A stretch of DNA of 64,000 nt from Psammoneis japonica (Eukaryota). Both the position numbers and the translations under genes were made by a program. Location: positions 248,001 to 312,000 of the forward strand of contig QPGO01000044.1 in NCBI GenBank assembly GCA_008632985.1. Direction: 5' to 3'. This document shows, one piece after another, positions 1 through 52,375 of the stretch (the stretch's first letter is position 1; every line of letters begins with the position of its first letter). The notes under the pieces are model-generated. The model did no database searches and was not told where the DNA came from. It saw only the letters and a program-made list of their open reading frames with translations.

Positions 1-3000
1 CACGAGTAAAAGCAAGCTGTAATGCAACGGCGCAATCCTTGTTTTTGTGAGTAGTGCAAATGTTCGAGTACGTACCCGTACTCAAATCAATCTTGAAGAA
101 CTCCTTGCTGCTGCCACCTTGGCCATTGGAGCTGCCATACAAAATACCGTCATAGATCGCCACATCTCCAAAACGATATCTTTTGTGCTCGGAACCTGTG
201 AACCTGTCCTTGACCCAAATGAAATCATCCACTTCGCCGTTTGGTTTGAAGGAAATAGCGCTGAGATTGTCTGTGTTTTCCGGAATATAAAAATACTTTC
301 CATCCATGAATGAGGCAGAAAACACTTTTCCTTTAATTCTACCCGCACGAACAATTTCATCCGCCTCAAAGTCGTAGAAGTAGAGAGCACTGGATTTACC
401 ATTTAGCTCGGCAGAAAAATAGAGGCGTTTAGAAGAAGCATCGTACGCCACGCCATTAGGCTCATTCTCAGCCTCGGGATGAAAACTCCCGGTGTCTTTG
501 ATGAGTGTTGCCGCAGGTGTTCCGGACAAGTCAATTTCGTAAATATTATCTTCCTTATTGTCATGTGTGAAACGAATTCCATAGATGGTGTCGGGCTTGC
601 ATTGAGTGGGAGAGGAAGTTGGAGAAGTAGTGGGTGCGACCGGGCACTCGCTGTCGCCACAGGTAGTGCCGAACCCCTGGAACGTGCCACCAAACTTGTT
701 TTGGCAACGGAATGTCTTGATGTCTTGGATGCATTGACCAGACTCCACGCAACAGGCGCCTTCAACTTTGCATTGATTGGCATGACAGGACTGAAAAACA
801 AACAGTGTGAGTCACATGATTAGAACCATTACTTCATTTCGACTCCACAGTGACTTTGCTCACCGTATCATCGCCTTTGTAAACACCATCGAATGTCCTA
901 CAAGACGCCTCTGAGATCCTGTAGCACTCCTTTTTGGTCTTTAAGCAACACGCTCCGACCTTTGGAGGGGTGACGAGACACGAGGCGCCCCTACAGGTTG
1001 TACCGAAACCCTGAAACGTTCCACTGAATTTGTTCCGGCATAGGAAACTCTTGGTGTCGGGGATGCAACTGCCCGATTCCAAGCAGCAGGCCCCTTCCAC
1101 AGGGCAGCGATCAGCATCACAGGACTGCAAGAATGTTGATCAGGGACGATTAGAAACAAAAGATTGTGTGGCAATGTCATCATACAGCGAAATATAGTCT
1201 TACAGTACCGTCTCCTTGATACACTCCATCGCAAGATGCCTTGGTGGTAATGTTGCATTCCTTTTTAAGCTTGGAACAGCACGCTCCTGTCTCTTCTTCC
1301 ACGGGCGTTGGACTTGGAGTGGGAGAGGAAGTAGCTACGACTGGGCACTCGCTATCGTCGCAGTTAGTACCAAAACCCTGGAATGTCCCATCTAACTTGT
1401 TTTTGCACATGAAAATTTTGCTGTCAGGAACACAGTCCCCCGACTTTAAGCAGCAGGCACCTACGATACTACAGGTGCCGCTATCACACGTCTTCAATAG
1501 GGGGATTCAAGGAGGACATCAGGTTAGAACTTAGAGTGAGTCAAATTTGGGTCAAAAGTACGAAAAAGACCACTAACCGTGTCGTCACCCTGATAAATCC
1601 CATCCTTCAAATTACACGACGCTTCTGATTCTTCCACTAAGCATTTTTTCCAGAACTTCAGACAGCAAGCCCCCTTTTTAGTCGGGACGGGACTTGGAGT
1701 GGGAGAGGAAGTAGCCACGACTGGGCACTCGCTATCGTCGCAATTAGTGCCAAAGCCTTGGAATGTCCCATCTAACTTGTTTTTGCACATAAAAATTTTG
1801 CTGTCAGGAACACAGTCCCCCGACTTTAGGCAGCAGGCACCTACGATACTACAGGTGTCGCTAGCACACGTCTTCAATAGGGGGATTCAAGGAGGACATC
1901 AGGTTAGAACTTAGAGTGAGTCAACTTTGGGTCAAAAGTACGAAAAAGACCACTAACCGTGTCGTCACCCTGATAAATCCCATCCTTCAAATTGCACGAC
2001 GCTTCTGATTCTTCCACTAAGCATTTTTTCCAGAACTTCAGGCAGCAAGCCCCTTTTTTCACACCTGTAGCCGTAGGACTCGGCGTTGTCGGGGAAGGAG
2101 TAGGGGAATGCGTTGGTGTCTCGGTTGGAGTCGGTGTAGGCACAACTGGACATACACTGTCTTCACACGTTGTTCCAAAACCCTGGAACACGCCATTGAG
2201 TTTTTTCCTGCACCTAATTCGACTTGCACCGGAGATGCACCTCCCTGAGCTCAAGCAGCAGGCACCTCTGACACTACAGAGTCCTGAAACGCAGCTCTAG
2301 AAACGAACAACAATTATGGGCAACGTTTAGCTAGAATGTTGAACACTGTTGCATGTCTTTTCGCCGCAACAGGTACTGCATTTTTTGCTCTTTCTTGCTT
2401 ACCGTGTCATCACCCTGGTAAACTCCATTTAAGATTCTGCACGAAATTTCCGAAATCGCAAAGCATTCTTTCCTGAATTTCAAACAGCACGCCCCTGTCG
2501 TCACATGTAAGGACGTTGGACGCGGTGTAATTGGAGCTGGCGTGGGATAGGGTGTCGTGTCAACAGAACAAGTTCCAAACTCGCATTTAGAACCAAAGCC
2601 CTTGAATGTTCCTGTCACATGTTGATGGATTTACAAACAAATAGAACTGATGAGAAATTCTTTGTCAGCCTCTAGCAGACCTATGTATTACAACTGATCG
2701 GCTGCTCACCCCCGTTTTGAAGACAGAATTTCTTCTTGATCACCGAGCACCTTTTCTGCCCATTGTAGGTAGCGCAGCAAGCACCACGAAGTGGGCATGT
2801 ATCTGAACCGCAACTAGTACCCTTGGGAGAATGAAAAGGGAAACAATAAGCGTAATAGGTTAAAAAACTTCAAATTGAGAATGAAAACCAAACTGAAACG
2901 AAAATCAAGACTCACCTCTCCCAGGAAGTTACCTGCTTGGCAATAGTCCTCACGGACGACTGAACAAGAACCACCTTCTAAATCGCAACAGGCACCGCGA

Positions 3001-3573
3001 GTGACGGCGGGGCATGTATAGATAGCCTTTTTTGGGTCAGCAGTTCAAGAGACAGTAGAAGATGAATGAGAATATATGGAGGACACCATTTGAAAAAGCT
3101 GCGCGAAAATTATTCACTCACACATAGGGTGTTGGGACCCTTGAAAACGCCATTACGGTTTGCACAGTTTCTTAACCTCATCACCTGACACCGTCCATTT
3201 TTTAAGCAGCAAGCCCCAATTGGAGAAAACTGAAAATGAAAATGAGAGGTGGGGCCTCCCCGAAGTATTAGACTAGTGACGATTTTCGAACGGGAAAGTA
3301 GTGAACCACGTTTCTTTTGCTTACCGTGAGGTCCCTCTGGTAGTCGGCTTCAGCAAAATTGATACCCTCCTTTGTCGAGTCATTTGCAAATTCATCGTGA
3401 TGCTCTTAGAGATAATATGGAGATGGAATGCAGCGCGAGTTTTAAAGTCAGATGATCGAAAACGCTTCATCATCAACACATGCTCATTCCAGGGATAACC
3501 GTTACGCACCTGTCGCCCCACAGAGAGCAAAAGCAAGAAAGACAACAGATACAACCTTAGAAACTGCCCTCAT
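1..3573 (-). CDS. Secreted multi-exon protein: tandem Cys-rich 'GACC...C...GxxQGxGT.C' repeats with Pro/Thr linkers, then a beta-propeller-like C-terminal domain; 3' end lies outside the window
   Basis: ATG at 3573 gives the signal-like MRAVSKVVSVVFLAFALCGAT, then a GT donor. Repeat exons (ORFs 834-1130, 1180-1497, 1524-1877, 1904-2254, 2331-2618) end in YQGDDT followed by GT. The last exon is open from about 790 to base 1 (EPNGVAYDASSKRLYFS...RFGDVAIYDGILYGSS). Confidence 0.8.
1310..2059. repeat. Near-perfect 380-bp tandem duplication (exon plus intron) inside the Cys-rich gene
   Basis: 1310-1679 matches 1690-2059, including the intron text aatagggggattcaaggaggacatcaggttagaacttagagtgagtcaa. 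Confidence 0.92.
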
Positions 3574-4084
3574 CGTCTAGCTCGCCACTTCAGTAGATGT
3601 TCTTTATTCTTCTTATTGCGAGCAAGAATTGTGAGACTGGCCGGAAAAAAATCGCGAATCGTAAGAAATCGAGGCGAAAGCAAAAAAGTTTGCATTCCAC
3701 ACTGTGCCTCTTTTTATTCGGTCATTATATAAATACATAAGTATATTCATATATATATATATATTATTTTAAACATAGAGTTATCACGTGCGTGCGTGCA
3801 TGTCGTGTGAAAAGTGAAAATACGTGTGTACGTACGTACAGTACGGTAGATAGAAGGGGGACATAATTATTATGCACCAACAAACAGTACTATACTCTGC
3901 TACAGTATGGTGCGTGTAGGTGGATGCTGTAGCTAAGACATCGCACAATTAAAATTGCAAATTCACAACAATTATTGACCCTAAATGTAAAATGTCCATG
4001 TTAGTTGTAATGCTTCGCTTGCCGCAAATGACACGTACGCGCGCATGATTCGGTCATACATGCAGCAAGTGTCGCTCACCTACT

Positions 4085-4311
4085 ACAGTGCTACAGCATT
4101 TCAATGGGAATCATTCGAAATTGTCGCGGGAGTCATAATTAGCATTTTACATAAGGAAAAATACCAAATCGTGTAGAAATGTACACAATGTCATACGAGA
4201 GGGTGATTAGAACTGCTAACTTTTCGGGAACTCAATTGAAATGTCATCTTATCAAAGGCATTTTGATTTACATGGTGAAGAGCAATGCCTTTGATCAGAC
4301 GACATTTCAAT
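4085..4311. repeat. Dispersed non-coding repeat, left part; interrupted by the ISL2EU-like element and continuing at 9270-9400; uninterrupted inverted copy at about 50960-51253
   Basis: 4101-4311 joined to 9270-9335 aligns colinearly with the reverse complement of about 50985-51253. Confidence 0.85.
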
Positions 4312-5519
4312 GGGTTTGCGGACTTTCAAAAAGCCGGTGCACCATCGGGTCATCTTTTTTCTTTTCACAAAAAAAAACATTTTTTGCATCCCGTCACTGC
4401 CGCTTCACTGCCGTTGCTTGTGTTGCCAACAGCAAGGCCTTTTCTGCTGATGCTGTCTGTCATCCACCACCCACATTTGTGCAGTTGTTGTCTGCAACAT
4501 GGGAGCGAAGGACAGGAGCAAAATGTCTTTCACAAACTTGCTTGATGGCACCCGCTTGCCACAGCTTGGAATGATTTTGCATGACATTGCACTCCAATCC
4601 TCCGCCGAAAACACGCCGAGTCGCAACCCATGTGATGTGCAACAAAGTGGGTGGCAGTCCTGCTCATCTTTTCCACTTTTTTGATTGCTTTTTTGGGGTT
4701 GATGTGGACTTTGCAATCGTGTTTGATGGAGACTCTTGTCATCACTCGAAGTGCACCACAGTCAAATGATCGGCAGATCAAAAAAAGGTCAGAGTCCAGG
4801 CAACCTAAACAAGAGCAACACACTCGCAGAGTTTGAGGAATGGCAGAACAGCAACAGAACTGGAAAAGGAAAAGGATGAGAGTCTCAACAAGAGCTTGAA
4901 ATTGAGGGAGACTCAAAGTGTTGGTGGAAGCAAGAGAACAACCGGTTTCATCCTCAGTTTGTTGCTGGTGTTTGTGACCTTGTGAAGAAATGGGAGGACT
5001 CTAGAATCAAAGCAATGGTTGCAGTCATGCAGGCTCACCAAGTGCTTGCCAAATTGGTTCTTGACAGATGTGCCAAAGTGATTGTTGGCAATCACAGTGA
5101 TTTCCCCGGCATGCATTGGTGGCAATGTTGTTTTGATCCCCGTTTTCACAAGTGTGAAGTTTGCAAGAAGCAAGTCAATCATGTCACACCATCAAGCAGA
5201 TTCTTTTCTGTTCTTGAATGAGCCATTGAAAGTGGTCCAATTTAAAAAGACAGCATTGCTCCAGCCAAGCATGCAATGCTTGACAGGCATTCACTGTGAC
5301 ATTGTTGCTCAATTGCTGTTTGTCTCAAAAACAACACTTGTGTGGGTGGCGTTCCCAATGTGGCTGCCACTGAGCTGAGTGCAGTCATTGAGGAACACAG
5401 CTGCAGTGGCAAGTGCAACAAGCTGCTTGGAGCTCTTTCTGACAAGGCAAAAAGAAAGTCAAAGAAGAATGAGGCTGAGGTGGGGGGTGTTGTCAAAATG
5501 CACTAGAAACTTTTGATGC

Positions 5520-6890
5520 CATGATGTGCAAGCCTGCAAACTTGGTTGGCCAAAATGGACCCCACAACTGCCTTTGTGGAAGGCCAGAGAAGAGTCTGCA
5601 TTGGCATTTGGAAGCATTTGTGGAAGATGACAATGATGTTGTTGATGGGCCTGCAGTGTTGGAATGTGCCAGTCATTCAGTTGGCAACGATGGAAAGCAT
5701 GTGTTCCTTGAAGTTGAGGGGTCCTTCAGTTGTTGCAGGGACAGTTGCTCAAAGGTCCTTTGTAAATTTTGTCACATGGAGTCAGACAAGAAGAAGTTTT
5801 GTTTTTGCTGCTTCCTTGAACACAATGTTGACTTGTCCTTTGATGGACCAATGATGTCACACTTGGAGCTCAAAGAGCACCACCTCTGTGCTGTGGGTGA
5901 GAAGAAGCTTTCCAAGGTGGAGGAGGCAATCAAAGGGAAGGTTGCGCATCCAACAAAACCAGCCAGTGCATTCACCAACAAGGAGCAGCTTAAGATGCAT
6001 TTGGCACTCAATTTTTCCAATGGAGGCCGTTTCTTGAGTGATCCATGTCTTTCTGATTAATCAGCAGTTGGAGTTGTAAAGATGAAAGATGCTTGGTGCC
6101 TTGGTGGACTGTTCAAAGGATCCAGAAGGAGCTCCGCGGGATGGTGCTGCAAAGAAGGAACATGCAGCACACAGTGCAGTTCTGACTTTGATTCAAAAGT
6201 TTGTTGAGGGGGACCACATGCTGACAATGGCATCCGAACATTGAAACAAACTGTGCGGCATGTGGTTGATCCAAAGACACCATCTTCACTGAGTGCCCAA
6301 GGACAAGTGTGTGAATGTGACAATGAGATTGCCTTGGCTCTTTCATCTGCAGTCCATGCCTCCATGAAAGGTGACAATCATGATGGAGCCATTGTCTTTG
6401 CAGAAAATGCATTGATTGCAGCTTCTTGCAAGTGTGACTCAGGGCCAGCAGAAGTGGATGACCAGCACATTTGTGTTCATGTTGCATCCAAACTGTGCAG
6501 TCCTGGTGTTCTCTTGCTTTTTGACAGTCTGGCCAAGCGCATTCTTTGCAAGTTGGTTTGCAGATGCAGCAAGCAAGTCAGACCCATCATTTGACAGTCC
6601 TGACAACTGTGTTGCATTCTTTGATCCCATCCAGTTGCTGGCACAAGCAAGTGGACAATTGGGTGCACCTGCCACACAATGTGCAACATTAAAGGAACAC
6701 TTGTCAGAGCTGAACGTGGGTGCCAAGAAGGACAAGATGGCACCTTGGCCATCATGCACAAAGGATCTCTGTCCATTGAAGGATTTAGTGTGTGTGTCTG
6801 CTGTGGCAAAGGCAAAGGGTGCCATTTGTAAATCTGTGATGGACTTGGGCATTGTGGCAGATGACAATGATGATTCAATGTTTTGAAGCT
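5520..6890 (+). pseudogene. Accessory ORF remnant of the ISL2EU-like element (SWIM zinc-finger type)
   Basis: VHASMK...LIAASCKCDSG...HICVHV resembles the CxC...CxH SWIM motif; the frame is broken by stops and frameshifts. Confidence 0.5.
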
Positions 6891-7449
6891 CCTTGTCCTT
6901 GGATGATTCAAGTCACTCATTGGATGACTCCAGCTTTGTTGACAAGAGCAACCTCTTCATTTGTCCCCAGCAACAACCAAGCTGCCTCTTGATTGACTGT
7001 GCTGATGAAGCAGTGTCACCTGCAATCAATGCTCATTTGCACACCAATGGACTTCCTGGTGACAAATGTCAAAGCGCACTTTGTTGAAGCCGGCTGGAAC
7101 AGCTTTGTCAGCAACAAGCTTCTGAAATGGCCAAGCACTTCTGCCAAGATAGATGGTGGTGCAGCAATGGCAAAGCCAGCACAATCATGCTCAAAAGAAT
7201 GGCATGAAGCACTCTCAGAATGTGAGCAAAGACAAGAGAAAAGAGGCAGCAACCAACATGGGAGCAGGCAATGCAAGACATCAGACAAAAAGGAGAATGA
7301 GCTTCTGGAATGAACCAACTCAAGCAATGCTGCAAACAACAAGTCTGCTGTCAAGCCACCAAATGAGAGCAAACCTTGAAAGAAAAGGCAGAGTGGCCAC
7401 TGACGCACTGTTGCAAACTGCCCATTCACTCAATGCACAAAGTTCAAGG

Positions 7450-9100
7450 TTGTGACGATGCATCCAAAGCCGCTTCCTGCAAATGCCAGTCAGGTGCAAA
7501 AAAAGAGGTTTACAAAAAAGACTTGGCATCACAAGAAGTTCCTTGACAGTTGTGGGGATGGGAACAGAAGGATGTCAAGAAGACTGAACCTGACAAGGAC
7601 CATCGCATTTGTTCTGAGCATGTCAAGGATTGCATCTTGATTCCAGTGAGTGTGTTGCACAAAAGATTCCAGCCACTTTGAGTGATGGATCCACTGTTTG
7701 CAAGAAGAAGTTGCCTTCCTTTGCCTTCACCAAGAAGTGTGCAAATGCAGTTGGCACAAAGTCCCATGCAATGACCCTTCTGCAAACTCACTCAGGATGT
7801 CCCTGGACTGCTGAGTGGCAAGTGAGTTGCTCAAAGAGAGCATCAACAACAGTGTGAAGGTGACTCCAAAGCAATCTTCTCACACAGTTTGCCCCCCCCC
7901 NCCCCCTGCTGACCCCCCCTGCTGAACAATGTGCAACAACCACCGACGGAATGCAAAGCTTGTTGTTTTCAAACATTCAACAAAATGCCACAGATGAATC
8001 TCCAAATGTGTGGGAAATCAATGCTGCAGTTTGCAAGGAAGCTGGTCATCCAGCTGCAGCTGCTCCAATTCCAACCAAGATTTTGCCTTGGCAACAAAAG
8101 AGGCAATGGGAGAATTGGGACAAACCAAGTCCCACCATGTGCAAAGCAGTGTGCAAGTCAAAGACTTGACAGCAGACAATGTCAAGCGTTGCACTGGATT
8201 CAGCAATGCATCTGCAAATGCTCTCCTGTTGCATGGTGGCTTGTGATGGTGACATTGAAACATTCAGCAAAACAGTTTCATGCTTGATGCTGATGGAGGA
8301 ATGGGTCCTTTGCTTTGAGTTTGTGTGCAGGCATGCAAGCCAAAGTGAGAAAGACAAGACCAAGGAGTGGGGTGTGTCTGGCAAGACTGTTAGAAAGATC
8401 CGCAACTTCAAAGTGAATCTTGTGTTGAGATCAAAAGAACAGTGGGCCAGCATGTGCAACATTTGAGGAAGTCAGGGAGCTCCATGATCTGAAATGGAAT
8501 GAGCAATGCAGTGATGAGAGAGTCATCTTTTGGGACAACACTGGCTGGAGTTGAAGTGTCCAAATCATCTGATCCTGAAATGCAACACCTCACATGGTCT
8601 TTGCATCACTGTGTCAATGTTGCAAAAGGTGGCATGTCAGAGCAGCTCTGTGGGTGGATGACTTCATTTGACCTTTGGTTGGGAGGAACAAGTGACAAAG
8701 AACACTTTGAAAAGAGTGAAATTTTGGAAGGGCCGAGGCTGTTCACTGTTGGTGACAAAGTGTTGAGAAAAATTGTTGCTTTTGCAAATGTGCTTGACCA
8801 AGGACAACAATGTGATCTCACAGCTTGGCAAAAAGGAAAGCAGCTGATCTTGCAACCAATCTTCAAGCCAAGCAGCCAAAAGTTCAACACACAAGAGGTG
8901 ATCCTGTCTGCAGGACTGGCCACAGATTGTTCAGGAAATGAACAAGGTGCAAAGGTTGTGAAACACTTGGCCTTTCTGAAGGTTGGCCTTCATCACTGGT
9001 CAGACGTCAGTTTTTTTTTGCAATGTGTGGCTTGCTTTTGGATTTCAGACAAACTTCATGTGTAAATCCGCAATGCTGTTGATGCATCAGAACCACTGAG
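7450..9100 (+). pseudogene. DDE transposase remnant (DDE_Tnp_4 / Harbinger-ISL2EU type)
   Basis: RVIFWDNT, NVAKGGMSEQLCGWM...LWLGGTSD, NVLDQG (cf. ILDKGY), ATDCSGNEQG (cf. DRSGNERA). Confidence 0.7.
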
Positions 9101-9457
9101 CACCAACATGTTCCATTTCTTGCACCGGCAGCCAGCAATTGGTGTTCTCATTTAGCTGGTTTTGATCAGAAGTGACACGGTGGAGGAGCAACTTGTGTCA
9201 AAGTGACAACATCAAAATGGATGGCAGGACAGACAGTGCACACATGCTTTTTACAAAGCCCGCAAACTCATTGATTTCCCGAAAAGTTGACATTCGAATG
9301 TGTGCAGGTGGACAGACTGATGACAATCATTTCTGGTCCTTTTCCACACATGTTCCATGCAATGTGACTCTGAGAGCCACAATGACTGTCATTGGAGAGA
9401 GCCACTGCAATGGGCACTGCTGTTTGTGACCTTGATTGCCTCAATCTTCCCACACAC

Positions 9458-10032
9458 AATTCTGCACATGGGCAAAATTGTCAATTGACAGTTTTTTCTG
9501 ATTGATCTGATTAAAAAATCCCGTGCACCTGAGCACCAGAGTTCTGTGTAGAATGCTTGCCTGCAAGCAGGCGCTGCACAGCAATGCTGGGCATCACTGA
9601 TTGTGGCAACCGGCATTCAACTGCAGCTCTCCATTTGAATCCATGCCAGTGTTCCATGATGACAAACAAACAAGTTCATCTCCTTCATTTTTTTGTGAAA
9701 CAGGTGACACTTCCTTCCCAAACAACCAGCTGCAACTTCTTCACCTGTTGGGGCAGAAAACATTGCCTGTTCACAAAAGTTGATGGAGACAAAGTTGGTT
9801 GCTTGTCATTGCAGAGCACTGGCATGAAGCAAGACAGAGAGCCATGCTCAAATGCCAGTTGCCGCCATCAACAATGCCTCAACACATTGCTTTGTGTTGC
9901 TCAGTGTTGTTGCATGGCACTGCCAGCAGGCCAGTCATTCTGTGCAGATTGCTGGTGCTCACCTGCATGAATTTTTTAATCAGACCAATCGGAAAAAACT
10001 GTCAACTGACAATTTTCCCCTTGTGCAAAATT
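9458..10032. mobile_element. MITE-like element with long (~160 bp) imperfect terminal inverted repeats
   Basis: 9458-9620 is the reverse complement of about 9850-10032 (ggcaaaattgtcaattgacagttttttctgattgatctgattaaaaaatc vs attttttaatcagaccaatcggaaaaaactgtcaactgacaatttt). Confidence 0.7.
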
Positions 10033-10329
10033 CTGTCAACAGTGAAGTCTTTTTCTCATTTTGCCCTGCACTGCAATTGCAGTTGACAGAAAAACTTGAC
10101 AGAGACTGGGATTGTTCCCAGTTGACTGACAAAAACAGAGAAAAAGAGAGCTGCAAGCAAGAGCAGTGAACTGGGTTGTGTCATGGCATCAGCAAAGGAG
10201 TGAGACCATGTGATTGCTGAGATCAAGATTTGGCAATCTAATGGCAACAATTAGAGACAAAAGCAGGAGAACCCTTAGAAAGGACCATTGGGTGATTGCA
10301 TTTTTGATCCTGGACAATGAGTGAAGCAT

Positions 10330-11812
10330 TGAAGGAGCCCTGCACCAGCCACAAGGCAAAATTTGAGCACTCTGACTTGGAGAGCATGTGAAATTGACTC
10401 AATCTCATGATGATGGTGCTGCTCATGCCAAGAAGTGTCCTTCTTTTGATGGCACTCATGGCATTGAAGCATTGCTGTTTGTCGAGCATTGTTTTCATGA
10501 GATTGCTGTGAAATTGGAGTTTGCAACTGGTGCAGAGTTGCTTGACAATTTTGAAGAAGTGCTGATGGACACTGCTGAGGACAAGTGGACCAACATGACT
10601 GATTCAATTCCAGACCCTCAGAAAATGGTGGCATGCTTTGACAAAGAGACGAGTTGTTTTAATTTGTCTTGTTGTGACAATGAGGCATGTGATGCAATGA
10701 TTGAACACTTGCCAACCTTGAAAAAGCCTTTTAAATCTGAAGTGCAGGTGCACACACATGGCATGGAGATGTTGACACATTGTTCCAACAAGCTCCCAGG
10801 AAACACACCTCAAGTCAATGACGCCCATGATTTTTGACAGTTCTCCTCAACCCTGGTGTGAGATGTGCACAGAGCTGGATGTTTGACAGCTGGTGATGCC
10901 CTGGTGGAGATCATCAGTTGCATGAACAACAAGAAGTTGTTTTCAGACAAGGGAAACACCAAGAAACAAGATGTGAAGAGGAAATGAACTTCTCCCCATC
11001 CAATCAAGCCTCAAGACACAGCTGTGGCAATGGCACTCATGTCAAATTGGAGTCCAGATGCCCGGCACATCCCAGTCATGATCAAAGTGGAAAGGTTGCA
11101 TCTTAAATCCTGAGAGTCAAAATTGTCAACCAAGGATGAATGACCAATGTGGTCATGGCAGTCATGGCCATGGGGAGGGGTGAATCCCAAGGCTGTGGTG
11201 ATCCGGCTGGACAAGCTCCTCCAGTTGGCTGGCAGATGGAATCACACCACTTTGATGGTGACAGAGGGCCTCACAAGATGCAAGGTAGAATGGGTGTGAC
11301 CAAGGCAGTCATCATCCCCAAGGCCAATGAAGTTGGCACAGTTGACAAGGGACAGAAGTGCCAAAGTCAGAGCATGTTGCTCAATGCATGTGATTCTTGA
11401 GCATGGTGAAGAAATGGACAGCACTTTAGAGCATGCTGTGCTGACCCCAAAAACAAGAATTCCCAAACCATTGAACATGGCACCAACAATGTTGATGGCA
11501 GCCAGAACCATGCAGAACCAAGAGAACAAGTGGGTGCTGCATGTTCTTTTAGATTCTGGTGGCACTCACTCTTTTGTGCATTTTCAAGTTTTGCCCAAAG
11601 GAGCAAGCTTGATGATGAACAATGAGGAGCAAATGAATTTTGAAACAGCCAGCAGGACAGTGTGAATCTTCTTGTTACATTCTCATGAAGGATTTGGCTC
11701 CACCAGAGTTTGACAAGTCCAAACAAGTTGATGGCATCACGGCTCAAATGTTCGATTCACCATTCAAGTGTGATGTGACATTGGGCCAAGATTTTCTTGC
11801 TCAAGCCAGAAT
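10330..11812 (+). mobile_element. Ty3/Gypsy fragment (gag and aspartic protease), truncated and degenerate
   Basis: Gag-like FDGTHGIEALLFVE...NFEEVLMDTAEDKW; protease VLLDSGGTHSFVH and CDVTLGQDFL (cf. YDIILGRDFL). Confidence 0.7.
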
Positions 11813-12989
11813 TGTGCTGTGGAAGCATTGGTGTGCTGTGTGCTTGTTGTGGTGTTGTGTCCCTCAGCGTTCCCACCTGTTTTTTTTTTTTTGCAGAAAA
11901 AAATGTTTGCACATGGACGTTGGTGTGTGTCATGTGCAGCAATCAATGCTCACACATTGTTCATTCACTGCATTTCAACATGTCAAAAATGCAAATGCTC
12001 TGTGTGCAATGACCCATGCAACATGCAGAGTCCATGTGTGATTGCACACCCGCAAACATGCATGTTTGATTTTTCCAATTTTCCATGACTTGTCAAGATG
12101 CAATGACAATGGTGACTGCAAACACAATGTGCTCCATCAATGACCATGGGCTCACCACAATGCCAACACATGTCATTGTCATGCAATTTCACATGTCTGT
12201 GGCTCACTGTGCTTTGAAGTTGATTGATCACAGTGAAAACAGCTGAAATGTTCAACATTTGCCCATCACTTTTCGACCACACAAGTCAACAATGATCCCG
12301 TTACACTCTCACATGCCAATTTTACTGTGCACAAGTTCATGAGATGCAACATGCTGCTGATTGTTGTGGCCCTTCAAGCCAACACCATCAAAAAACCAGC
12401 GATGGCAGAGTTGCCATGGTGATGTGGTTTCTGTGGTTTTTGGCTGTGTGGCACGCTGTTTGCAGGGCCCCACCTGCAGCAAATTTGCACTGAAACTGAG
12501 TTGTGCTTGTCAAGTTAGTGTGGCTTCCACTGCATGCATCATGTGCCAACCATTCTCAGTGGTGGGGCCAGCAGCAAAAAAAAATTGTGACCCAGCAGAA
12601 AAAATGGCTCAGCTCAGTTTGAATGTGTTGTCCTTCAGCATTTGTGTGTCTGTGGAAAAATGCTTCTTCTGACCGGCAGCAGCAAAAAGCAAATCACAGG
12701 CTCTCCACTGTTGCTGCAGCAGAGCCAGAGCAAGCCAGTGGCTGCTGTGCTCTGGAGAGAGCAGCTGCCACTGGTGGCCAGCTCTGTGGCAGAGAGTGCT
12801 CTGCTCTGGCATCAGCCAGCTCTCAGAGAGAGAGAGGTTAAAAAAAAAACAGATCCAATTTTTAAAGTGCTGTCACTCCTTTGCCAGCTGCGCCAGCACA
12901 CCAGCCAACACCCACACTTCCAGTGCACCACATCAGTGCAGCTGAAGGGGACAAGAACTGGCTGGAAGGGGCGTCACCAGATGGTGACA

Positions 12990-13760
12990 CCCTGCCAAAG
13001 TGACTGGGGATGGAATGAGTGACACAAAGCATGGAGTGCTTTTCCTCCTCTTTGATGCTGGCTTTGAGGCACAGCTTGTCATGGCAATCCAGTTCACAAT
13101 CTGCAAAGTGCCATGTGACATGTGGTCCTCCAATGAATCCATGAGATCAGCTCTGTCTTTTGCAGATGCAGATGGCAGCAAGTTCAGCCTCAGCGGTGCA
13201 CTGTTGTGAAGATTTCCGTGTGCCCGCATTGTGTCCATGGACGTGCTGTCATGTTTCTCCCAAAGTTCCTGCCACAAGTGCTAAATGTGTGATCCCATCT
13301 AAACAGCCCACACCAGAGGTGGGCATTGTTGTGCAGCATTGTTCCAACAGACCTGGCTGTTGCAAGTGAAACTCCTCAAAGGTGTTCCACAAGGATGAAT
13401 GTTGGCCATTGAAAACCTGACGCTGTCCCATGTCTGGCTGTGCCCACCACAAAGGACAGAGCATTGGGGTCACATTGGTCTCGTGCATCATTTCATCATG
13501 GAACCATGCTTCTGGTGAGGATGAAAGGAGAAGGTCTTGCAAGGGAGACATGGTGTCAATCTCATCACAGCACTTGCGCAATCCCCAAAGAAAGGTGCGT
13601 CTCCAGGCTTCATTGTCTGGGCAACCAAGGATGTGATCTCTGTCATCCATTGGACTTTTGCTTGAAAGACATTGATGAGGGCAGAAGGGATTGCATCTGG
13701 AACATCCCGGAAAGGACCTGAAACAGTCATTTCATGATGTGTCATGTGACCAAACCGTTT
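12990..13760 (-). mobile_element. Non-LTR retrotransposon 3' ORF fragment, degenerate
   Basis: DDRDHILGCP...QRQVFNGQ.SSLW...WQELWEKH resembles the zinc-knuckle/Trp-rich C-terminus of diatom non-LTR elements. Confidence 0.55.
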
Positions 13761-14209
13761 GACAAAAAGTCTTTTTGGCTGAATCTTTTGTCAAATGCAA
13801 GTGTCACAAAAGAGCACCCCGGTCATTCACAATTTGTCCCTTCTACAAGACAACTCGTTGTTTCAGAGTGGACAATTTCAGACAAAGATTTGTGAATCTT
13901 AAACCACACAGTTTAGAATTCAAACAAATCTTAAACCACATGGTTCAAGATTTTGACATTTTCTTCAAGATTTTGCAATTTTTGATGACAACATGGCACA
14001 AGATTTAGACAACATGGCACGATTTTTGATGACATGGTTTGAGATTTTGACAATTTGGTTTAAGATTGACAAAGCTTTTGAGACAACAAATGACAATGGG
14101 GTCTTCGCCATTTGCAACAGGTCCCTCTGACTGTGCAAAGGGCTGGCCCCATGCAACATGCACTGGTTGTTCCCAATCCATTCCATTGAAAGAGTCGTTG
14201 TGTGCAAAC

Positions 14210-19220: not shown

Positions 19221-19789
19221 ATTGGCTGCATTGTCAATGCACAGATTATGAAAGTTTTTCAGGAAGTGCCACTGCAAAGTCTTTGGGGTGCGTGCAATGG
19301 GTCACGGGACTTTGAAAAAGTGGATGCATGGATTTCCAGCCCATCTGCCTAAAATGTGTTGCTGCCCCACTGTGCAGCATGCCTTCTGGTGCTTTTCCAA
19401 CAAGGAGCGTGCAAATTCAAAATCAACAGTGAAAATGGCACTTGTCTTGGCAGTGCTCATTTCAAAGATGATTGTCTTGATGCCACCAGCAACCCCTGTC
19501 CTGTGACTCATGTGCATGACTTGTGGTGCTGTGGTGAGAAAATTGTGTGTTTTGAGTTGCAGTTGTGTGTCTTGTGGTGCAGTGTTGTGTTTTGATGCTT
19601 TTTGGGTGTGTTGTTGCCTGACCTTGTCTCACTCATGGTTGTTCATTTTGTCTTGTGTTTGCCATTGATGTGCCACAAGTGAAATGGATCGAGCTGTGGA
19701 TTGTGGGGTCAACCCAGGTGACCAGTGCTGCTGATCAATCTGGGGTGCATGAGGAACCACTTCTTGTCATTGGCGCATGACAGCTGGAC

Positions 19790-31334: not shown

Positions 31335-31336
<2 letters not shown>

Positions 31337-31367
<31 letters not shown>
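31337..31367. repeat. (TC)n microsatellite flanked by ctactctagcta motifs
   Basis: Directly visible. Confidence 0.95.
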
Positions 31368-31368
<1 letters not shown>

Positions 31369-44094: not shown

Positions 44095-44366
44095 TGACAG
44101 AAATTGAAGGCAAATGGCAAGAATTCAAACAATGACTCCTTGCTGCTGTCTAAACAGCAGATGAGTCTCCGCTCAGAGACCGTTGCAGGAGCCGAAAGAC
44201 GTGCAAGTCGGTGCAATCGGGCTGCTGTTGTCATTCTTGTGAGCCTTGTGGCTCGAAAGCAAACTGCATCGCGCGCGAACGCGCGGAACTAAAGCACACA
44301 AAACTGTGCACGGCAAACTAAACAGCGCGATTTCGCGCGCACCTGAATCCTGTTCAAATCCTGTCA
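44095..44366 (-). repeat. 3' LTR of the Copia element (272 bp)
   Basis: Matches 48781-49056 apart from four substitution sites and one 4-bp length difference. Confidence 0.96.
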
Positions 44367-44419: not shown

Positions 44420-47400
44420 AAGTTCCAGAACATGAGGGGGCGGAGAAGGTCCCAGACTTGGGAGTGACCCCAATGCTTGCTGAGAAAGTCAGCAGGGTTG
44501 CGGGAGCCTTCGATGAAGTGGAGCTCAAGGTGACCAGAGGCAATTGCCTCACGCACACGGTGGAACGACAGTGCGGTGTGTCACTTGTGTGACTTGGAGT
44601 GCGGGATGGTGGCACTGTCTACAACCGACTTGTTGTCACCGAACATGCAACTGACATTGCGGATCGGGATGCCAAGGTGGCGCAGGGTGATGCACAGGTC
44701 GACAATCTGCTCGACACAAGTCCTTGCGGCAACAAATTCAGACCCGCAGGTCGCAGTCTCCACGGTGGCTTGCTTCTTGGAGAACCAATCAGCCGGGAAT
44801 TTGTTGAGGAAGTGGAGCATTCCCATGATGGAGCATCCGGTGAGCATGCAATGGCACAAGTTTGCATCGACGCAGTGGGTGGCAGTGACGAACTTGCCAA
44901 GGGGCGGTGGAGCATCCTTCGGGATCATCTCCTCTGCTTCGCTGTGCATGGAATGCATCCATTCACAGGCCGGAGCAGGGAGATCCGAGTGGTCGGGCTC
45001 TTCCGTGCGAACGCAGAGAGCGCCATGTCGCATCTTGGAGAGGTGCCCACAGATGCGTTTGGCACGATCCAAGTGGCCTTGACGGGGCGCAGCTCGGAAG
45101 CTAGAGAGTGACATGACGGCCGTGGTGATGTCAATTCGACCAAGGGACACTGCCCATTGGAGTGAACCAACAAGAGACTGGAACTTGTGAATGCCATCGG
45201 GCCCCAGCAGTTCGGAAGTGTCCAGTTCGGGGTGGTCACCCTTCTCCAGAGGTGACAGGGCGTTGGTGGCAGGTTTCTCCCCAAACAGTCGGGTGCAGCT
45301 GTCGACCATGCGCTCGATGCACTTGCGCGGAGACAGGCACAAGGTGCCATCGGGATCCCGGGAAAAGTCGCAGCCCAGATGGAACTCAATGGGTCCCGCA
45401 CCCTTGAGCTTGAACTTGCACTTTTCCGCGAGAGTGTCGACGAAAGATTGAGGGTCCTTCACAGCAATGGCGAGGTCATCCACGCCGTTCCTGCGCATCC
45501 AAATGTCAGGTTCGGTGCGGCAGGGGAAGAAGCCTTCAGCTCGTGGGCAGTCGGCAAAGCGCTCGTGCCAGCGGAGACCGGAGCTGCGCAGTCCATGCAG
45601 GGCCTTGTGGATGACAAGGATGTGTCCTTCGAGTTTGCCAAATTCGGGTCCGGCTACAATGTAGAGCTTCTCCTTGGTGGTGGCTTCAAGGTGGGCATTG
45701 CCAATGTTGGTGGCCCATGTCTCCAACTCGTTGAGTTCGGCCAGGAAAATCATCAGCCGAAGGCCACGGAGGGAGACTGCTCCGGAGTAGACACCATCGA
45801 TGGGTACGTCCGTGAGGTGCCCATCGGCTGCGAGTCGTGCCTTGTGGCGACCGTCGTGTTTCATGTCGCACACCAGGTGCACTTGGATCTTCTTGTGTCC
45901 TGCAGGAGGAGTGGAAGACTCGAAGGGCCCGCAGTCATGGAAGACTTCGTATTCTTCGAGTTGGTCCATCTCGAGATTAGTTGCGTCTCCCCATTTGCAG
46001 TTGCCCTTGCGTTCGTCTAGTGACATGGCATGTTTGCAGTTCCGGGGAACTTTGCATCCGCACTTGCAGCGAGGTGCAGTGCAGAAGGAGCGAAGCTTGG
46101 CTTGGTTGGCCATGCGGAACAGCTTCTTCTGGTGCCTTGCGATGGTGCGGAACTGCTTCCAGCCATCAGTGTCGAGAAGTCCGTTCTCTCGTGCATAGAT
46201 GGCACAGGTGGCGGGGTCGTCCTTGGCGATGATGGCAAGAGGCTCGGACGTGATCTCCCCACTTTCCCATTCAAGCATGATGTTGTAGCTTGAGCTTTTC
46301 CAGGTTGGGTCATGAGGCTTCAGAGGTCCTTCGTGTGACACAATGCGTCGAAATTTCCAAACAGCAGTGTCTTCGTCTTCTTGCTCAATGTGATTCATGA
46401 TGTCGTTGCAGGCAAGGACTTCCTTGCATTGACCATTGTTGACAGAGCAGACGAACTCAGTGAGCTCGGGATTGCCGTTCACTTTCCATTCATGGTCTTC
46501 GACGGCCTTGACGATGCGAGCTCTGTGGCGTTGTCCATCCTCTTGTGGCTGCATGAGGAAGGTGCGTCCGATGATGTCTTGCGGATCGAAAACTGGCATC
46601 TTGGGTGTCCTGATCTCCCCATCAGGAGAATCGACGGGGTTGTCATCATGGTGAGATTTGATGATGGGTTCAGGTGGCTCCCCATCAGGAGGATCAAGAC
46701 GCAGGTTTTGAACGGCAGGATCGGTGGTGGCGGATCATACGTTGGACCAGCAGAGGATCTTCTGAGTCTCGTCAGAGAGAATCTTGAAGGTCATCTGGTG
46801 GCCGACGTGCTCAGCAATGCCAACAAAGCGTCCACGCAACTCACGGGATTTGGACAGCCAATCGGAGTCATCGAGGTGGAAGTGCACGGGTTCCCACCAG
46901 TGAAAGCGAAGCAATGGGCTGATGTCCGGGGTGGAGCCAGTGAGAGTCTCGAGGGGTGTGCGCCAGTGGAGACGTGGGGACGCTGCATGGTTGAGCATGA
47001 AGCACACGCACATGAGCGCCAGCAGCCATGTGTGGGCAGGCGAACCGAAATGATCCATGACAGTGTTCGCCATGCACTTCACGGTCTGGTGTCGACGCTC
47101 GGCAAAGTTTTGGTGTTGCTGGTGAGGCTCACTTTGCCAGCTGGAGATGAAGAGGGCTCGCAGGATCCCGAGCACCTTGTTGCTGATCTCAACTTGAGCA
47201 CGGTCGCTGATGAGTTTGGATGGGGCACCACACTCACGGATCTGATCCTCGAGTGTGTTGACAAACTCTTTGTCCGTTTTGGTGCCGCAGACGTCAGTGA
47301 CGGCAGACTCGGTGCCAACAAACAGTTGGGCGCTGGTGCAACCAGAGTCGACGGCCGGGGTGTCGGCACAAACGGTGTCAGTGGCGATGGGCTCGTTGCG

Positions 47401-48780
47401 GCGGTGCACATTAAGGGCGGGGTTGGGCGATTTGCAGGCCTTCCTGAGGTGTGCACCGGTGGGCATGCGGGCGCACTGCGTGGTGCAGTCAAAAGTACGA
47501 TGGACCGCATCGGCAGGGAGGAAGCCAAAGCAAGGCCAAAGAGACTCGAAGGGGGGGTCCTTGGGCTGCACAGTGTGCTCCGGGGGCGGAACGTCGTCGT
47601 CCTTGGGGTCAATCGCGTGTAGATGACACTCGTAGAACACATCGTCGTTCGGAATGAGGTGATCATCGAGGGCGGACGCGTGATCGGCAGACAAGGAAGC
47701 GGACATGATGGTCTTGTTGACAACGACACGATGACAGCAGTTGCCGCATTCGTCAAATGGGTTGGCAGTGGGATCGTCCTGCAGGTCAGAGATCGCGTCG
47801 CACCACTGGTCGTCGTCAGTGACAGAGTGATCAAGGACGGAAGGATCCCATGTGTCATCACCGGTGAGGATGACATGGGGCAGGGTGTCCCATTCGGCGT
47901 CAGTGCAAGGTCGCATGGCAACATGAGGCAGGCCGCCCTTGATGTCAATGGGGATGACACAGCCATCAGGGGTGGCAATGCGTTGCAAGCCGTTGGGCAC
48001 CTTGACAGAGCGATCGTTGACATCCTGTTTGCACCATTCGAGCTGGCCGCAGGAATGAATGGTCTTGCCCTTTCCCGCATGTGTGCACTGATGGAGGATG
48101 GCGATGACGGGACCACGCTGGGTCTCAATGATGGCACCAGTGGTGACAATGGGGATGTCCACCAATTGATGGTCGTCAATGCCCTGAACGTCGACTTGGC
48201 AAGAGGTGCGTGCAATGACGCGAACGTCATCGCCAGCAATGCCGCCGTTGGCCCCACGATCGACTGGAGCACCAGCGCGTGTGGAGCGATGAGCAGAGGC
48301 AGAGTGAATGACATTGTGGTTGTCAACGCGGCGGTGAGTGCGGCCGTCAAGTTCTGTGTCATCGGCAGGAGCTGGCGAGGTAGAGGGAGCGGCGGATGGC
48401 CCTGGTCGACTGGCGTTGGGGGCTTGGTTAGGAGACAACAGACGTTGCAGATCACCGGGTGGCAGTGGCTTGCGCTTGGTGAGGTGCTCCAGGATGGGAT
48501 TGTCCAAAGTGGCATCCACATTTGGAGCGGGGTCACCAGAGTCAGCAGGAGTCTTGTTGGACAAGTTGACATCACCGTCACTCCCAAGGCGTTGGTCGTG
48601 AAGGTTGGCCGCAACGGACTCATGGCAGTTGCTGGCTCGCGGGTTGCGGGGAGGCGGACGAGAATGCTCGAGGATGATCGCCTTGGAGGAATGGGGCAAC
48701 GAATCCCAAATCCGTTGGTGGTCGGGAGGGAGACGTTTCCATTGGTCACCAGTGAGGCTGGGACCACGGGTGCAGGCATC
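44420..48780 (-). pseudogene. Copia gag-end/pol polyprotein, inactivated
   Basis: ORFs 46735-48699 and 44581-46599 plus the RNase H tail. TGA stops lie at positions normally Arg (SNV*SA, HK*HTALS). The segment before the RT YVDD motif is missing (WMRRNG-VDDLAI). Confidence 0.92.
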
Positions 48781-49056
48781 TGACAGAAATTGAAGGCAAA
48801 TGGCAAGAATTCAAACAACAACTCCTTGCTGCTGTCTAAACAGCAGATGAGTCTCCGCTCAGAGACCGTTGCAGGAGCCGAAAGACGTGCAAGTCGGTGC
48901 AATCGGGCTGCTGTTGTCATTCTTGTGAGCCTTGTGGCTCGAAAGCAAACCACATCGCGCGCGAACGCGCGGAACTGAAGCACACAAAACTGTGCACGGT
49001 AAACTAAACAGCGCGCGACATTTCGCGCGCACCTGAATCCTGTTCAAATCCTGTCA
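48781..49056 (-). repeat. 5' LTR of the Copia element (276 bp)
   Basis: Direct repeat of 44095-44366. Confidence 0.96.
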
Positions 49057-50066: not shown

Positions 50067-52375
50067 TCAGGTCATGACGGGTTCCAGTCCTGGGCGGGAC
50101 TTTTTGTGACATTGGGCTCGTAGAATTCTGCGTGTGAGCTCCGCAGCAAAATTGTCAAGCAATGGACATGTGGATGATCGCCAACAGAAAAAGAGGCAAT
50201 TTTGCGAACGCATCTCCTCCTCCACACTTGAAGCACACATCAAAGAATGCAGCCAGTGCATTTTTGTTGTCATGAGTGCAGACAACAGAAAGCCTTTGGC
50301 TTCGCAAAACAGGCAGTGTGGAACAAATTTTTGTGACAGAACACACAGAAATGTGTGCCAAAACATGCGACAGATGACAAAAAATGATTGTGTCACAGTT
50401 CAGTGGTGCAAGGTCCCACCCAGAGCTGGAACGCGTCTCATTGCAATCAAGTTTGCAACAGCGATTGCAGTCAAAGTGAGGCTGATTGCAGCCGATCCCA
50501 GCAATTGGCCAACACTGCGGGGCGCTGTTTTGCCAACAGCCACTCTGTTTTGGCAATGGTGGATGTTCAGCTGTGTGCAATCTGGGAACAATTTGAGAAG
50601 CGCTTCGCGACAACCCTGTTCAGACCGTCAAACAGAAATTTTTTTGTTCAGATTCTAAAATGTGTTTCGGGGTGTTTCTCACTTTTTTGAATTTGGGTGT
50701 GTGTCTTTGCAAGACCTTGGAAATGTCAATGACATGCAAAACCCTGAGAGACCAACATGAATTCATCTTTCATGTGGACCACATGCATTGTGCACCGGCA
50801 GAAAATCCACCGCATGTCAGCTCACTCAGCAGCAATTCCATGTGTGTTTTACTTGCATCTCACACACGCACACACGCCTGCACAGTCCAATGACCACGCA
50901 CACGTGCATGAGATGATGTGTCAATGGGAATCATCCGGGTCCTGAGAGTCATCACGTAGAAATTGTGTGGGAGAGCACTAAAAATGATTGTTGTCAGTCT
51001 GTCCATCTGTCCATGTGCGAATGTCAACTTGTCGGGAAATCAACTGAAATGCTGTCTGATTGACAGCATTTTGATTCACACAGTGAAGGCCAATGCTGTC
51101 AGTCAGACGGCATTTCAATTCAGTTCCCGAAAAGTTGTTAGCTCCAATCACTCTCTCGCATGACATTGTGTGCATTTCCACACGATTTTGTGTTTTTCCT
51201 TGTGCAAAAGATCAATTGTGACCCACGCGACATTTTCAAATGATTCCCATTGACTCGAATCACATTTTGTTGAAACGCCACCTTTGCTCAAACACGTCAT
51301 GTTTGAGAAAACGGGCTCAATGTTTGAGGAATTGCTCGAACTTTGCGCAACTTTGAGCACTTGCTCAAACTTGCTGCTCAAACTTGGCAAGTTTGAGCAA
51401 ACACTCAAACTTGCACAAAGCTTGAGCAAATGCTCAAACATGTGAAATTGATGCCACCGGTGCTGCACCAGTGTGAAACCGCTGTGCAGCACTGGCCTGC
51501 CACACCGCACATGCTGTGCGCACTGCGACTGCTGCTTTCACTGCATGCAGGTGTCAGCACAAATCAAGTGCAATGGAAATGAGGTGTCAGCCGTCAGTGA
51601 CAAACAACAAAATCACAACCATCACACCATGGTGACACAAAAGATGATTTTTCTCTACGACAACACCTTCAAGAAACCCAACATTCCATTGAAAGACATG
51701 TGATGCAAACTCATGCACGAAAATGTTGAAAGTTCCAGCAGAACAGGCTTGTTGAGGGGGCTGCGGGGACCAACAAGGAACAGTGTCACGCAACAACATT
51801 TTGTCTTTTGTTTCAATCAAAAACATTTTTCAAAGCATGCCTTGGCATTGACATGTGCTAAAATGTCAACATTCACTGCAAATTGCCAAAGCGCCTTCGA
51901 TCGCTCCAAAGAGGAAATTTTCCATTCATTGCCAGTTTGTGCCAGGCTGCATGGAAAAGTGCAGCCGACATGCTCCAGCTCCAGGTGGGACCTTGCACCA
52001 CTGAGCTGTGACACAATTGCTTTTTGTCATCCGTTGCATGTTTCGCGTGCACATTTCTGCTTGTTTTGTTGTGAAAAATTGTTCCACACTGCCTGCTTTT
52101 GTGAAGCCAAAGGCTTTCTGTCATCTGCGTTCTGCATTTGTGACAACAAAAATGCACTGGGTGTGTTCTTCAACGACTGAAAAGAACATGCCCGGACATG
52201 CTGTGAAGAATGTGCTTCAAGTGTGGAGGAGGAGATGCATTCGCAAAATTGCCTCTTTTTCTGTTGGTGATCATTGATGTGTTCATTGCTTTGTGATTTT
52301 ACTGCGGAGCTCGCTCGCAGAATTCTGCGGGCCCAATGTCACAAAAAGTCCCGCCTGGGACCACAACCTGTCAGC
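50067..52375. mobile_element. Non-autonomous element with ~400-bp inverted terminal repeats; a third copy of the same repeat (44065-44094 + 49057-49430) is the Copia target
   Basis: 50067-50450 is the reverse complement of about 51960-52375 (gggcgggactttttgtgacattgggc vs gcccaatgtcacaaaaagtcccgcc). Confidence 0.75.

Follow-up and report, generated by a model that had tools for sequence, protein, structure and literature searches.

Why should two copies of one short repeat, lying in the same stretch of diatom DNA, differ at every TpA dinucleotide that one of them contains, while most of their CpG dinucleotides are kept? The stretch in question, hereafter the window, comprises 64,000 nucleotides of contig QPGO01000044.1 of Psammoneis japonica (assembly GCA_008632985.1, positions 248,001 to 312,000 of the forward strand; all coordinates below are those of the window). 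The repeat resembles a miniature inverted-repeat transposable element (MITE) and has copies near 4.1 and 51 kb. An initial annotation of the window had remarked on the contrast between these two copies, and our analysis confirmed that the observation is real. Regionally targeted, TpA-specific hypermutation of transposon-derived DNA would explain both the repeat pair and a series of domains nearly void of TpA in the same window, a reading to which we assign, on comparative sequence evidence, a probability of roughly 0.75.

Copies of the repeat were located as follows:

4101..4323, plus strand: MITE-like repeat copy that retains TA, 3'-truncated (about 223 of 334 bp), beginning with the terminal repeat TCAATGGGAATCAT
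50920..51253, minus strand: full-length repeat copy of 334 bp with 15-nt terminal inverted repeats, within the TA-void domain 49960-56354
9271..9394, plus strand: third, partial repeat copy (3' third of the element), within the TA-void domain 4270-21403

The ends of the 51-kb copy are the 15-nt inverted repeats TCAATGGGAATCATC and its complement. Alignment of 4101-4243 with the reverse complement of 51111-51253 gave 143 ungapped columns with 23 differences (84% identity), which confirms the pairing proposed in the initial annotation and sets the exact start of the partner segment at 51111; homology extends at lower likeness to about 4323 and 51031 (223 nt, 76%). In the aligned stretch the 4.1-kb copy contains exactly ten TpA, at 4136, 4140, 4148, 4152, 4162, 4174, 4182, 4194, 4208 and 4217, and the 51-kb copy reads at those sites, in order, CA, TG, TG, CA, CA, TG, CA, TG, TG and CA, exactly the positions and readings that had been claimed. 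None of the ten is intact: from the 4.1-kb to the 51-kb copy, five changed by T>C and five by A>G. The proposed even, strand-symmetric split between CA and TG is thus found in the pair, and it also holds in every domain of the window, where CA and TG counts lie within 10% of one another. The annotation was likewise right about the CpGs, five of the six in the 4.1-kb copy being kept and the one at 4116 reading TG, and about the single site that differs in the opposite direction, where G at 4215 stands against A and creates the sole TpA of the 51-kb copy in the aligned stretch. Counted by type in the same sense, the 23 differences are A>G 7, T>C 5, G>A 3, C>T 2 and transversions 6; ordinary changes are also present in this old pair, since 11 of the differences are of kinds other than A>G or T>C. 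Ten differences fall on the 20 TpA positions among the 143 (hypergeometric P = 1.1e-4), and 200,000 random placements of 23 differences never reached all ten TpA, the maximum being nine, in 8 placements.

The full-length 51-kb copy holds only three TpA (observed/expected ratio, obs/exp, 0.11). The DNA around the 4.1-kb copy is TA-normal and adjoins a TA-void domain; the copy's last TpA is at 4269, and no other follows before 4806. Between the 9.3-kb and 51-kb copies, both void-resident, there are CA/TG double differences together with TA/TG and TA/CA differences. A sensitive blastn search of the 64-kb window found no copies of the repeat's 5' half beyond those at 4.1 and 51 kb, and a 28-letter degenerate pattern of the 5' end had 0 matches in a metagenome scan. 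The wider family was sampled in contigs of sequencing run X1, which contain 93% of sampled words of 3001-6000 at a depth of about 50-65x; aligned on 3901-4500 at a likeness of at least 80%, they gave 215 contig pieces. Runs X2 and X3 gave no aligned pieces, an outcome that does not speak for absence. Summed contig depth was 50 in the left flank, 1,300-10,300 within 4101-4320 and 66 beyond, that is, 26-200 times the flank inside the repeat. The contigs diverge before 4101, and several extend beyond about 4311 with sequence resembling the 51-kb copy, which confirms the truncation of the 4.1-kb copy. As for a target-site duplication, the flanks of the 51-kb copy do not match, the 4.1-kb and 9.3-kb copies are truncated, and void flanks are possibly mutated. 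With its short length, inverted ends and high copy number, the repeat is a high-copy, non-coding, MITE-like element.

The family contigs bear on the direction of the changes. Of the 32 variants listed within 4101-4243, 17 affect TA positions, without exception as T>C of the first base or A>G of the second. Both changes occur among the variants listed, in different contigs, at seven of the ten TA sites:

TA site 4148/9: T>C in 4 contigs, A>G in 6
TA site 4162/3: T>C in 9 contigs, A>G in 7
TA site 4174/5: T>C in 5 contigs, A>G in 12
TA site 4182/3: T>C in 11 contigs, A>G in 9
TA site 4194/5: T>C in 6 contigs, A>G in 11
TA site 4208/9: T>C in 6 contigs, A>G in 13
TA site 4217/8: T>C in 8 contigs, A>G in 11

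The remaining three sites have one alternate each among the variants listed. At the seven sites, in the order given, summed alternate depth is 35, 78, 29, 30, 20, 63 and 63%, which leaves TA with no less than 22-80%. Since CA and TG are each one step from TA and two steps from each other, their presence at a single site argues for TA as the ancestor. Seventeen aligned contig pieces are at least 99% alike to the 4.1-kb copy, and only two places, 4212 and 4250, are private to it; there, unlike at the TA sites, the other letter makes up 100% and 99.6% of depth. Over all 71 variable places in the family, A>G (19) and T>C (20) amount to 39, versus 15 for G>A (9) and C>T (6). The initial annotation had left polarity to a comparison across family copies. 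That comparison, together with the long terminal repeat (LTR) pair and the conserved tyrosines described below, supports TA as the ancestral state with TG and CA derived, and does not support the direction of repeat-induced point mutation (RIP).

The window as a whole contains 1,501 TpA, with obs/exp of 0.34 for TA and 1.50 for CA and TG. A two-state segmentation on TpA density, with counts also taken per 500 bp, resolved five sharply bounded void domains covering 34.9 of the 64 kb, with TA obs/exp of 0.04-0.12 and CA/TG of 1.5-1.9:

4270-21403 (17.1 kb): TA-void domain with 83 TpA, TA 0.07, CG 0.16, CA/TG 1.86 and no recognisable genes
22367-24714: TA-void domain, TA 0.05, CG 0.34, CA/TG 1.76
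34866-36517: TA-void domain, TA 0.06, CG 0.35, CA/TG 1.89, ending about 120 bp from the Maf1 open reading frame (ORF)
42085-49491: TA-void domain containing a Copia LTR retrotransposon, TA 0.12, CG 0.82
49960-56354 (6.4 kb): TA-void domain with 17 TpA, TA 0.04, CG 0.45, CA/TG 1.81, containing the 51-kb repeat copy
1-4269, 24715-34865, 36518-42084 and 56355-64000: TA-normal domains, TA 0.56-0.67, CG 0.86-1.0

Pooled and strand-symmetrised, obs/exp in void versus normal DNA is 0.07 versus 0.60 for TA, 1.75 versus 1.21 for CA/TG and 0.41 versus 0.95 for CG, and for every other dinucleotide the gap does not exceed 0.16. Four of the void domains resemble the rest in GC content, and that of the Copia domain is higher (0.55). 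Void gives way to normal DNA sharply, over no more than a few hundred bases. The 11.6 kb of normal-domain sequence that lie outside long ORFs keep TA at 0.69; the void state is therefore not merely the non-coding state. All host genes, namely those for an amino-acid transporter, a PhoX-like protein, GT90, Maf1, Ccdc124, fibrillarin and GT61, lie in TA-normal DNA; apart from the Copia element, the repeat copies and a sub-threshold integrase remnant, the void domains contain nothing recognisable. A Pfam scan of 46 void-domain open frames returned only RVT_2 (Copia) and the sub-threshold integrase core, and no viral hallmark, so that a viral origin such as that in Bigelowiella natans (see below) is not supported for these domains. 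The integrase-core (rve) match, at 18181-18771 (E 1.4e-5, 25.8 bits), is the only recognisable protein remnant of the 17.1-kb domain. Loss of CpG differs widely among the void domains (0.16, 0.34, 0.35, 0.82 and 0.45, in the order listed), whereas loss of TpA is uniformly extreme, which argues for separate decays with that of TpA the faster; in the Copia element, the youngest, only TpA has been lost. The frequency of TAA plus TAG in void DNA is reduced about fivefold. The two repeat copies contrast because of their location, and probably also because of a difference in age.

The Copia element allows the process to be followed after integration. Its parts are:

44095..44366, minus strand: 3' LTR of the Copia element, with TG...CA termini
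48781..49056, minus strand: 5' LTR of the Copia element, with TG...CA termini
44584..46734, minus strand: open frame containing the reverse transcriptase (RT), 717 aa, RVT_2, five Tyr
46738..48810, minus strand: upstream Copia open frame, 691 aa, one Tyr, no Pfam match

The two LTRs of a retrotransposon are identical at integration. Here they differ by TG/CA doubles at 44133-4 and 44265-6, by TA/TG at 44291 and by CA/TA at 44314, plus one 4-bp indel. All six substituted positions, at four sites, are former TpA positions, and there are 0 other substitutions in about 272 nt; put as events, at least six fell on about 6-8 ancestral TpA per LTR versus 0 on about 260 other positions per LTR. The TpA that are intact in both LTRs both lie within CTAAA. 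As the LTRs were identical at integration and their only substitutions are at former TpA, the process therefore hits integrated DNA, on both strands, and probably far faster than ordinary substitution. In the gene duplicates D5 and D8, which lie in normal DNA (97% identical), 6 of 19 differing positions are of TpA type.

TA obs/exp over the Copia element is 0.09-0.12 and that of CpG is 0.82. The RT frame was compared with 80 of its 120 homologues (54-66% identical), a Tyr column being taken as conserved when at least 70% of homologues carry Tyr. At the 20 conserved Tyr columns the frame has Y at 4, C at 8, H at 5, W at 1 and F at 2. Such replacements follow from the codons, in that TAY>TGY gives Cys and TAY>CAY gives His. 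Other conserved residues are mostly kept, at 79-100% (P 27/27, F 15/15, W 10/10, L 38/41, G 37/39, R 27/34), and retention is lower for Val (14/23), Thr (13/19) and Ile (14/20). Tyr makes up 0.7% of the RT frame versus 2.3-5.6% in the 120 homologues, and 2.5-3.0% of four host proteins. The Copia family is not intrinsically TA-free, since TA obs/exp ranges from 0.33 to 1.14 at 80 metagenome loci with related Copia elements (407 kb), of which 1.0 kb was classed as void. The only TA-poor stretch among these environmental loci, L063:947-1975, has 9 TpA in 1,029 nt (obs/exp 0.18, CA/TG 1.31) and may be a mild case of TpA erosion in another organism, or chance.

Loss of TpA also depends on the flanking bases. 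The 159 TpA that survive in void DNA are non-random, with 54 in CTAA/TTAG, 33 in TTAA and 0 in ATAT. An additive half-site model, in which each strand contributes independently according to the base after the A, gave loss exponents of 3.08 for TAT, 1.70 for TAC, 0.76 for TAG and 0.35 for TAA (TAT > TAC >> TAG > TAA), and fitted with chi2 8.6 (6 df), against chi2 257 (9 df) for uniform loss. TpA being palindromic, this preference can equally be described as one for a purine before the T. In the repeat pair, the model gets the CA-or-TG outcome right at seven of nine informative sites.

Several other features were observed in the void DNA. Two AT-rich, TA-normal islands with sharp edges lie within it, at 21404-22366 (GC 0.36, TA obs/exp 0.80) and 49492-49959 (GC 0.32, TA 1.02), the latter flanked by a direct repeat of about 22 nt (49403-49424 / 49991-50012). 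The islands may have inserted after the erosion or may be immune to it. Their presence suggests that targeting works by element or by episode and not by whole neighbourhoods. An imperfect inverted repeat, 50075-50437 / 51967-52373, surrounds the 51-kb copy; its arms are 82-87% complementary in several blocks, their differences include several CA/TG doubles, and the structure looks like a foldback-like or terminal-inverted-repeat element of about 2.3 kb. A tandem array of about five units of 177-186 nt, 62-90% alike, occupies 19789-20659 in the 17.1-kb domain. Window position 7901 is a single N.

Could these patterns arise without targeting? TpA might be hypermutable everywhere and decay to TG or CA, selection preserving genes and their flanks, and the 4.1-kb copy and the islands being simply younger. 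In keeping with this, differences of the TA/TG, TA/CA and CA/TG kinds account for the 6 of 19 positions mentioned above in the gene duplicates of normal DNA, the 4.1-kb copy looks young from its two private places and 17 closely similar contig pieces, and TA is already at 0.60 in normal DNA. However, most changes in these duplicates, of comparable divergence, are not at TpA; normal DNA outside long ORFs keeps its TA; the void borders are sharp; and the Copia element has lost its TpA although it is young by its LTRs, with no substitution outside TpA, and by its CpG. We therefore consider untargeted decay unlikely. No special mutation at all would be needed if TpA were selected against, through a TA-cutting nuclease, UpA-sensitive RNA decay or DNA bendability, or if old subfamilies differed in composition. 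TpA under-representation is indeed common in genomes, and the 51-kb copy matches the majority alternate at 4174 and 4194, a possible subfamily structure. The loss nevertheless strikes DNA without recognisable function and ruins conserved tyrosines of a transposon protein, while genes retain TA, the LTR differences that arose after integration are all at TpA, and related Copia elements are not TA-poor, which makes such an explanation very improbable. A systematic miscall of a modified base in the void domains seems more improbable still: base modifications can give such miscalls on some platforms, but the X1 contigs repeat the void sequence beside the repeat (4264-4500) with 0 other letters, although X1 is possibly the window's own source data.

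Two further alternatives concern the starting state. In the classical RIP direction, TG and CA would be ancestral and the 4.1-kb copy would have gained its TpA through C>T at CpA/TpG. A two-copy comparison by itself cannot polarise the changes, and the 4.1-kb copy is TA-rich for the window, with ten TpA in 143 nt against about 3.4 expected at window density. Against this, TA at the ten sites is common to many family copies, the presence of both CA and TG at seven of them needs two changes from either ancestor, the private sites of the 4.1-kb copy behave unlike its TA sites, with about 100% alternate depth, the LTR and Tyr tests point the opposite way, and the window is TA-poor, not TA-rich; we regard this direction as scarcely credible. 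Ancestral CpG at the ten sites could also have yielded TG or CA by deamination of 5-methylcytosine, and TA by a second hit. Every void domain except that of Copia is indeed poor in CpG (0.16-0.45), and CA/TG doubles are a signature of CpG decay too. Yet TA, which would then be the double-hit state, equals or exceeds either single-hit depth at five of the seven sites where both are listed, the repeat's true CpGs are kept at five of six, the Copia domain combines TA 0.12 with CpG 0.82, and Tyr codons, which lack CpG, have been turned to Cys or His at 13 of the 20 conserved positions. An origin of the pattern from CpG is thus most unlikely. Biased gene conversion was rejected, given that AT, AA/TT, other A/T-containing dinucleotides and GC content are unchanged in the void domains. 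ADAR-type editing of an RNA intermediate was also rejected, given that both strands are hit within one copy, that a non-coding DNA-type element and unique flanking DNA are hit, and that the LTRs diverged after integration.

Several points weigh against regionally targeted TpA hypermutation or limit what it covers. The domain pattern rests on one 64-kb window and the LTR test on four sites. The family data are pooled contig depths, not haplotypes; the entry threshold of 80% likeness to a TA-bearing copy favours TA-bearing relatives; and repeat copies are related by descent, so that contig counts represent non-independent events. TA is in the minority by depth at 4162/3, and the A>G variant by itself accounts for 54% of depth at 4208/9. 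The 4.1-kb copy was possibly spared by its youth rather than its location. In void domains with CpG loss, ancestral CpG can also yield a CA/TG double difference. The half-site model is wrong at two of nine informative sites (4174 and 4194), and the two AT-rich TA-normal islands fall outside the explanation. Finally, erosion is not general among diatoms or the diatom-like sources sampled, the related metagenomic Copia loci being uneroded.

Taking regionally targeted TpA hypermutation as the working explanation, the history of the pair would run as follows. The common ancestor of the two copies would have had ten TpA. The 51-kb copy came to lie within a transposon-derived domain where a strand-symmetric process, acting on DNA, would turn TpA into TpG or CpA to near saturation, the change being an A:T>G:C transition at either base of the TpA palindrome. 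The 4.1-kb copy, apparently young and near the family consensus, would have escaped in gene-flanking, TA-normal DNA. A uniform genome-wide bias is not what the data indicate; the process appears concentrated in sharply bounded domains. At the level of sequence comparison, we regard it as demonstrated that TA is ancestral, that only TpA is affected and on both strands alike, that DNA is changed in place once integrated, that the effect is confined to regions and that it depends on the flanking bases. The process itself would be an enzymatic, targeted genome defence against mobile DNA, aimed at silenced or repeated DNA, and the choice of target by repetition, chromatin or small RNAs is possible. 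Chemically, adenine in 5'-TA-3' on either strand might be deaminated to hypoxanthine and read as G at the next replication, a step that we put forward tentatively, at somewhat less than even odds. The main alternative chemistry is a mutagenic modification of the T in TpA: TpA is self-complementary, so A>G and T>C are indistinguishable and the damaged base could be either A or T. The natural substrate of TadA/ADAT has an invariant U before the edited wobble A of the tRNA, which would suit a preference for TpA. No deaminase genes were found among the scanned ORFs of the window.

To our knowledge, hardly any natural case is known in which genomic DNA undergoes programmed or targeted A:T>G:C mutation. 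A literature search, with subscription papers and the supplements of the B. natans preprint outside its scope, found no report of TpA hypermutation in diatoms; the available text of a diatom hypermutation paper (PMC9258296) has no bearing on TpA erosion. The single precedent found is a 2026 preprint on Bigelowiella natans, an unrelated alga (Mettrop et al., bioRxiv 10.64898/2026.01.13.699255). According to that preprint, 231 of 302 nuclear mutations in mutation-accumulation lines fell in two integrated viral regions, all but one of them (230 of 231) being A>G or T>C changes located at TpA, and the rate in the viral regions was about 1000-fold over background. The same source describes TpA-poor coding sequences enriched for reverse transcriptase and DDE domains, proposes without proof an ADAT2-like adenine deaminase, and cites in its Discussion that ADAR prefers a 5' U before the edited A (bioRxiv 10.64898/2026.01.13.699255).

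Our case shares with the integrated giant-virus and virophage DNA of B. natans the near-exclusive A>G/T>C bias at TpA-only sites, giving TpG or CpA according to strand, the confinement to discrete non-host regions, which here are transposon-derived, and the long-term depletion of TpA with a gain of CpA and TpG. The evidence differs in kind: in B. natans the mutations were measured directly in accumulation lines, whereas here they are deduced from paralogues, LTRs and homologues. The hosts differ as well, B. natans being a chlorarachniophyte (Rhizaria) and P. japonica a diatom. The main targets described for B. natans are single-copy viral insertions that keep much of their TpA (Rho 0.45), unlike the transposon-derived domains seen here, at 0.04-0.12 and with very sharp borders. 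The preference TAT > TAC >> TAG > TAA is described here; the available text on B. natans makes no mention of one.

Other known systems resemble the present case in part. Like RIP in ascomycetes, it involves dinucleotide-specific transitions at the DNA level, ruined transposons, sharp compositional domains and action after integration. In RIP, however, C changes to T, mostly within CpA, so that TpA and AT-rich DNA arise, whereas here TpA is destroyed, CA and TG are created and GC stays about the same; instead of C>T at CpA/TpG with a gain of TpA, we found the opposite polarity, void TA at 0.07 and ordinary GC. The decay of CpG through 5-methylcytosine likewise yields TG and CA and accompanies the loss of TpA in all void domains except that of Copia (CG 0.16-0.45), but it has another source dinucleotide and another direction of base change. 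The two are separable, since CpG is not lost from the Copia domain and five of six CpGs persist in the repeat pair. ADAR and APOBEC editing offer the likeness of deaminase-style hypermutation of parasitic sequences. ADAR favours a 3' G, and TAG is, in contrast, a poor context here.

Observations on the TA-normal part of the window can be given briefly. The best identity of the Maf1 protein is 57-58%, with named homologues from Seminavis, Chaetoceros, Helicotheca and Attheya, which are diatoms; these homologues place the source of the window among the diatoms, and the modest best identity indicates that its own proteins are absent from the collection searched. The amino-acid transporter gene (Aa_trans, 684 aa) has an adjacent partial duplicate (27958-28569 and 28942-31005), with 273-nt blocks that are 97% identical (28214-28486 / 29819-30091). 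In the fibrillarin gene (57354-58798), which has a Gly/Arg-rich N-terminal repeat region at 57618-57918, the Pfam match is split across two frames, which indicates an intron or a frameshift near 58187-58383. On the minus strand, 633-2495 and 33138-34482 are clusters of repeated units of about 334-380 nt, in TA-normal DNA and 60-82% alike between clusters; in the former, the unit pair 1310-1609/1690-1989 is 97% alike. These clusters gave only a weak DUF6923 match and look like repeated coding modules of two paralogous genes. A tRNA scan of the window found none.

For annotation, the practical consequence is that hypermutated transposons lose most of their Tyr (6 left in 1,408 aa) while the Copia element keeps two long open frames; with few TAA and TAG and with Tyr lost, eroded elements can be mis-called as genes and can evade homology searches. 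Such a system makes the mechanism tractable: TAY half-sites serve as a target motif, LTR pairs changed at TpA only as an internal clock, and DNA that is clearly targeted adjoins DNA that clearly is not. Should the enzyme be a natural DNA adenine deaminase, it would also merit interest for base editing. Its occurrence in a diatom extends the signature to a different major lineage and an ecologically dominant group, near saturation on transposons and with clean gene borders. We suggest, as a proposal that falls a little short of an even chance, that diatoms, or at least this lineage, may possess a defence that is RIP-like and chemically opposite to RIP, in which an adenine deaminase or equivalent TpA mutator would act on newly integrated mobile DNA and erase about 80-95% of its TpA, with a preference for TAY half-sites, before ordinary substitutions accumulate, converting Tyr to Cys or His. 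If this is true, then together with the Bigelowiella case it would mean that TpA-editing defence is ancient and widespread in the SAR supergroup (stramenopiles, alveolates and Rhizaria), or that it has evolved repeatedly.

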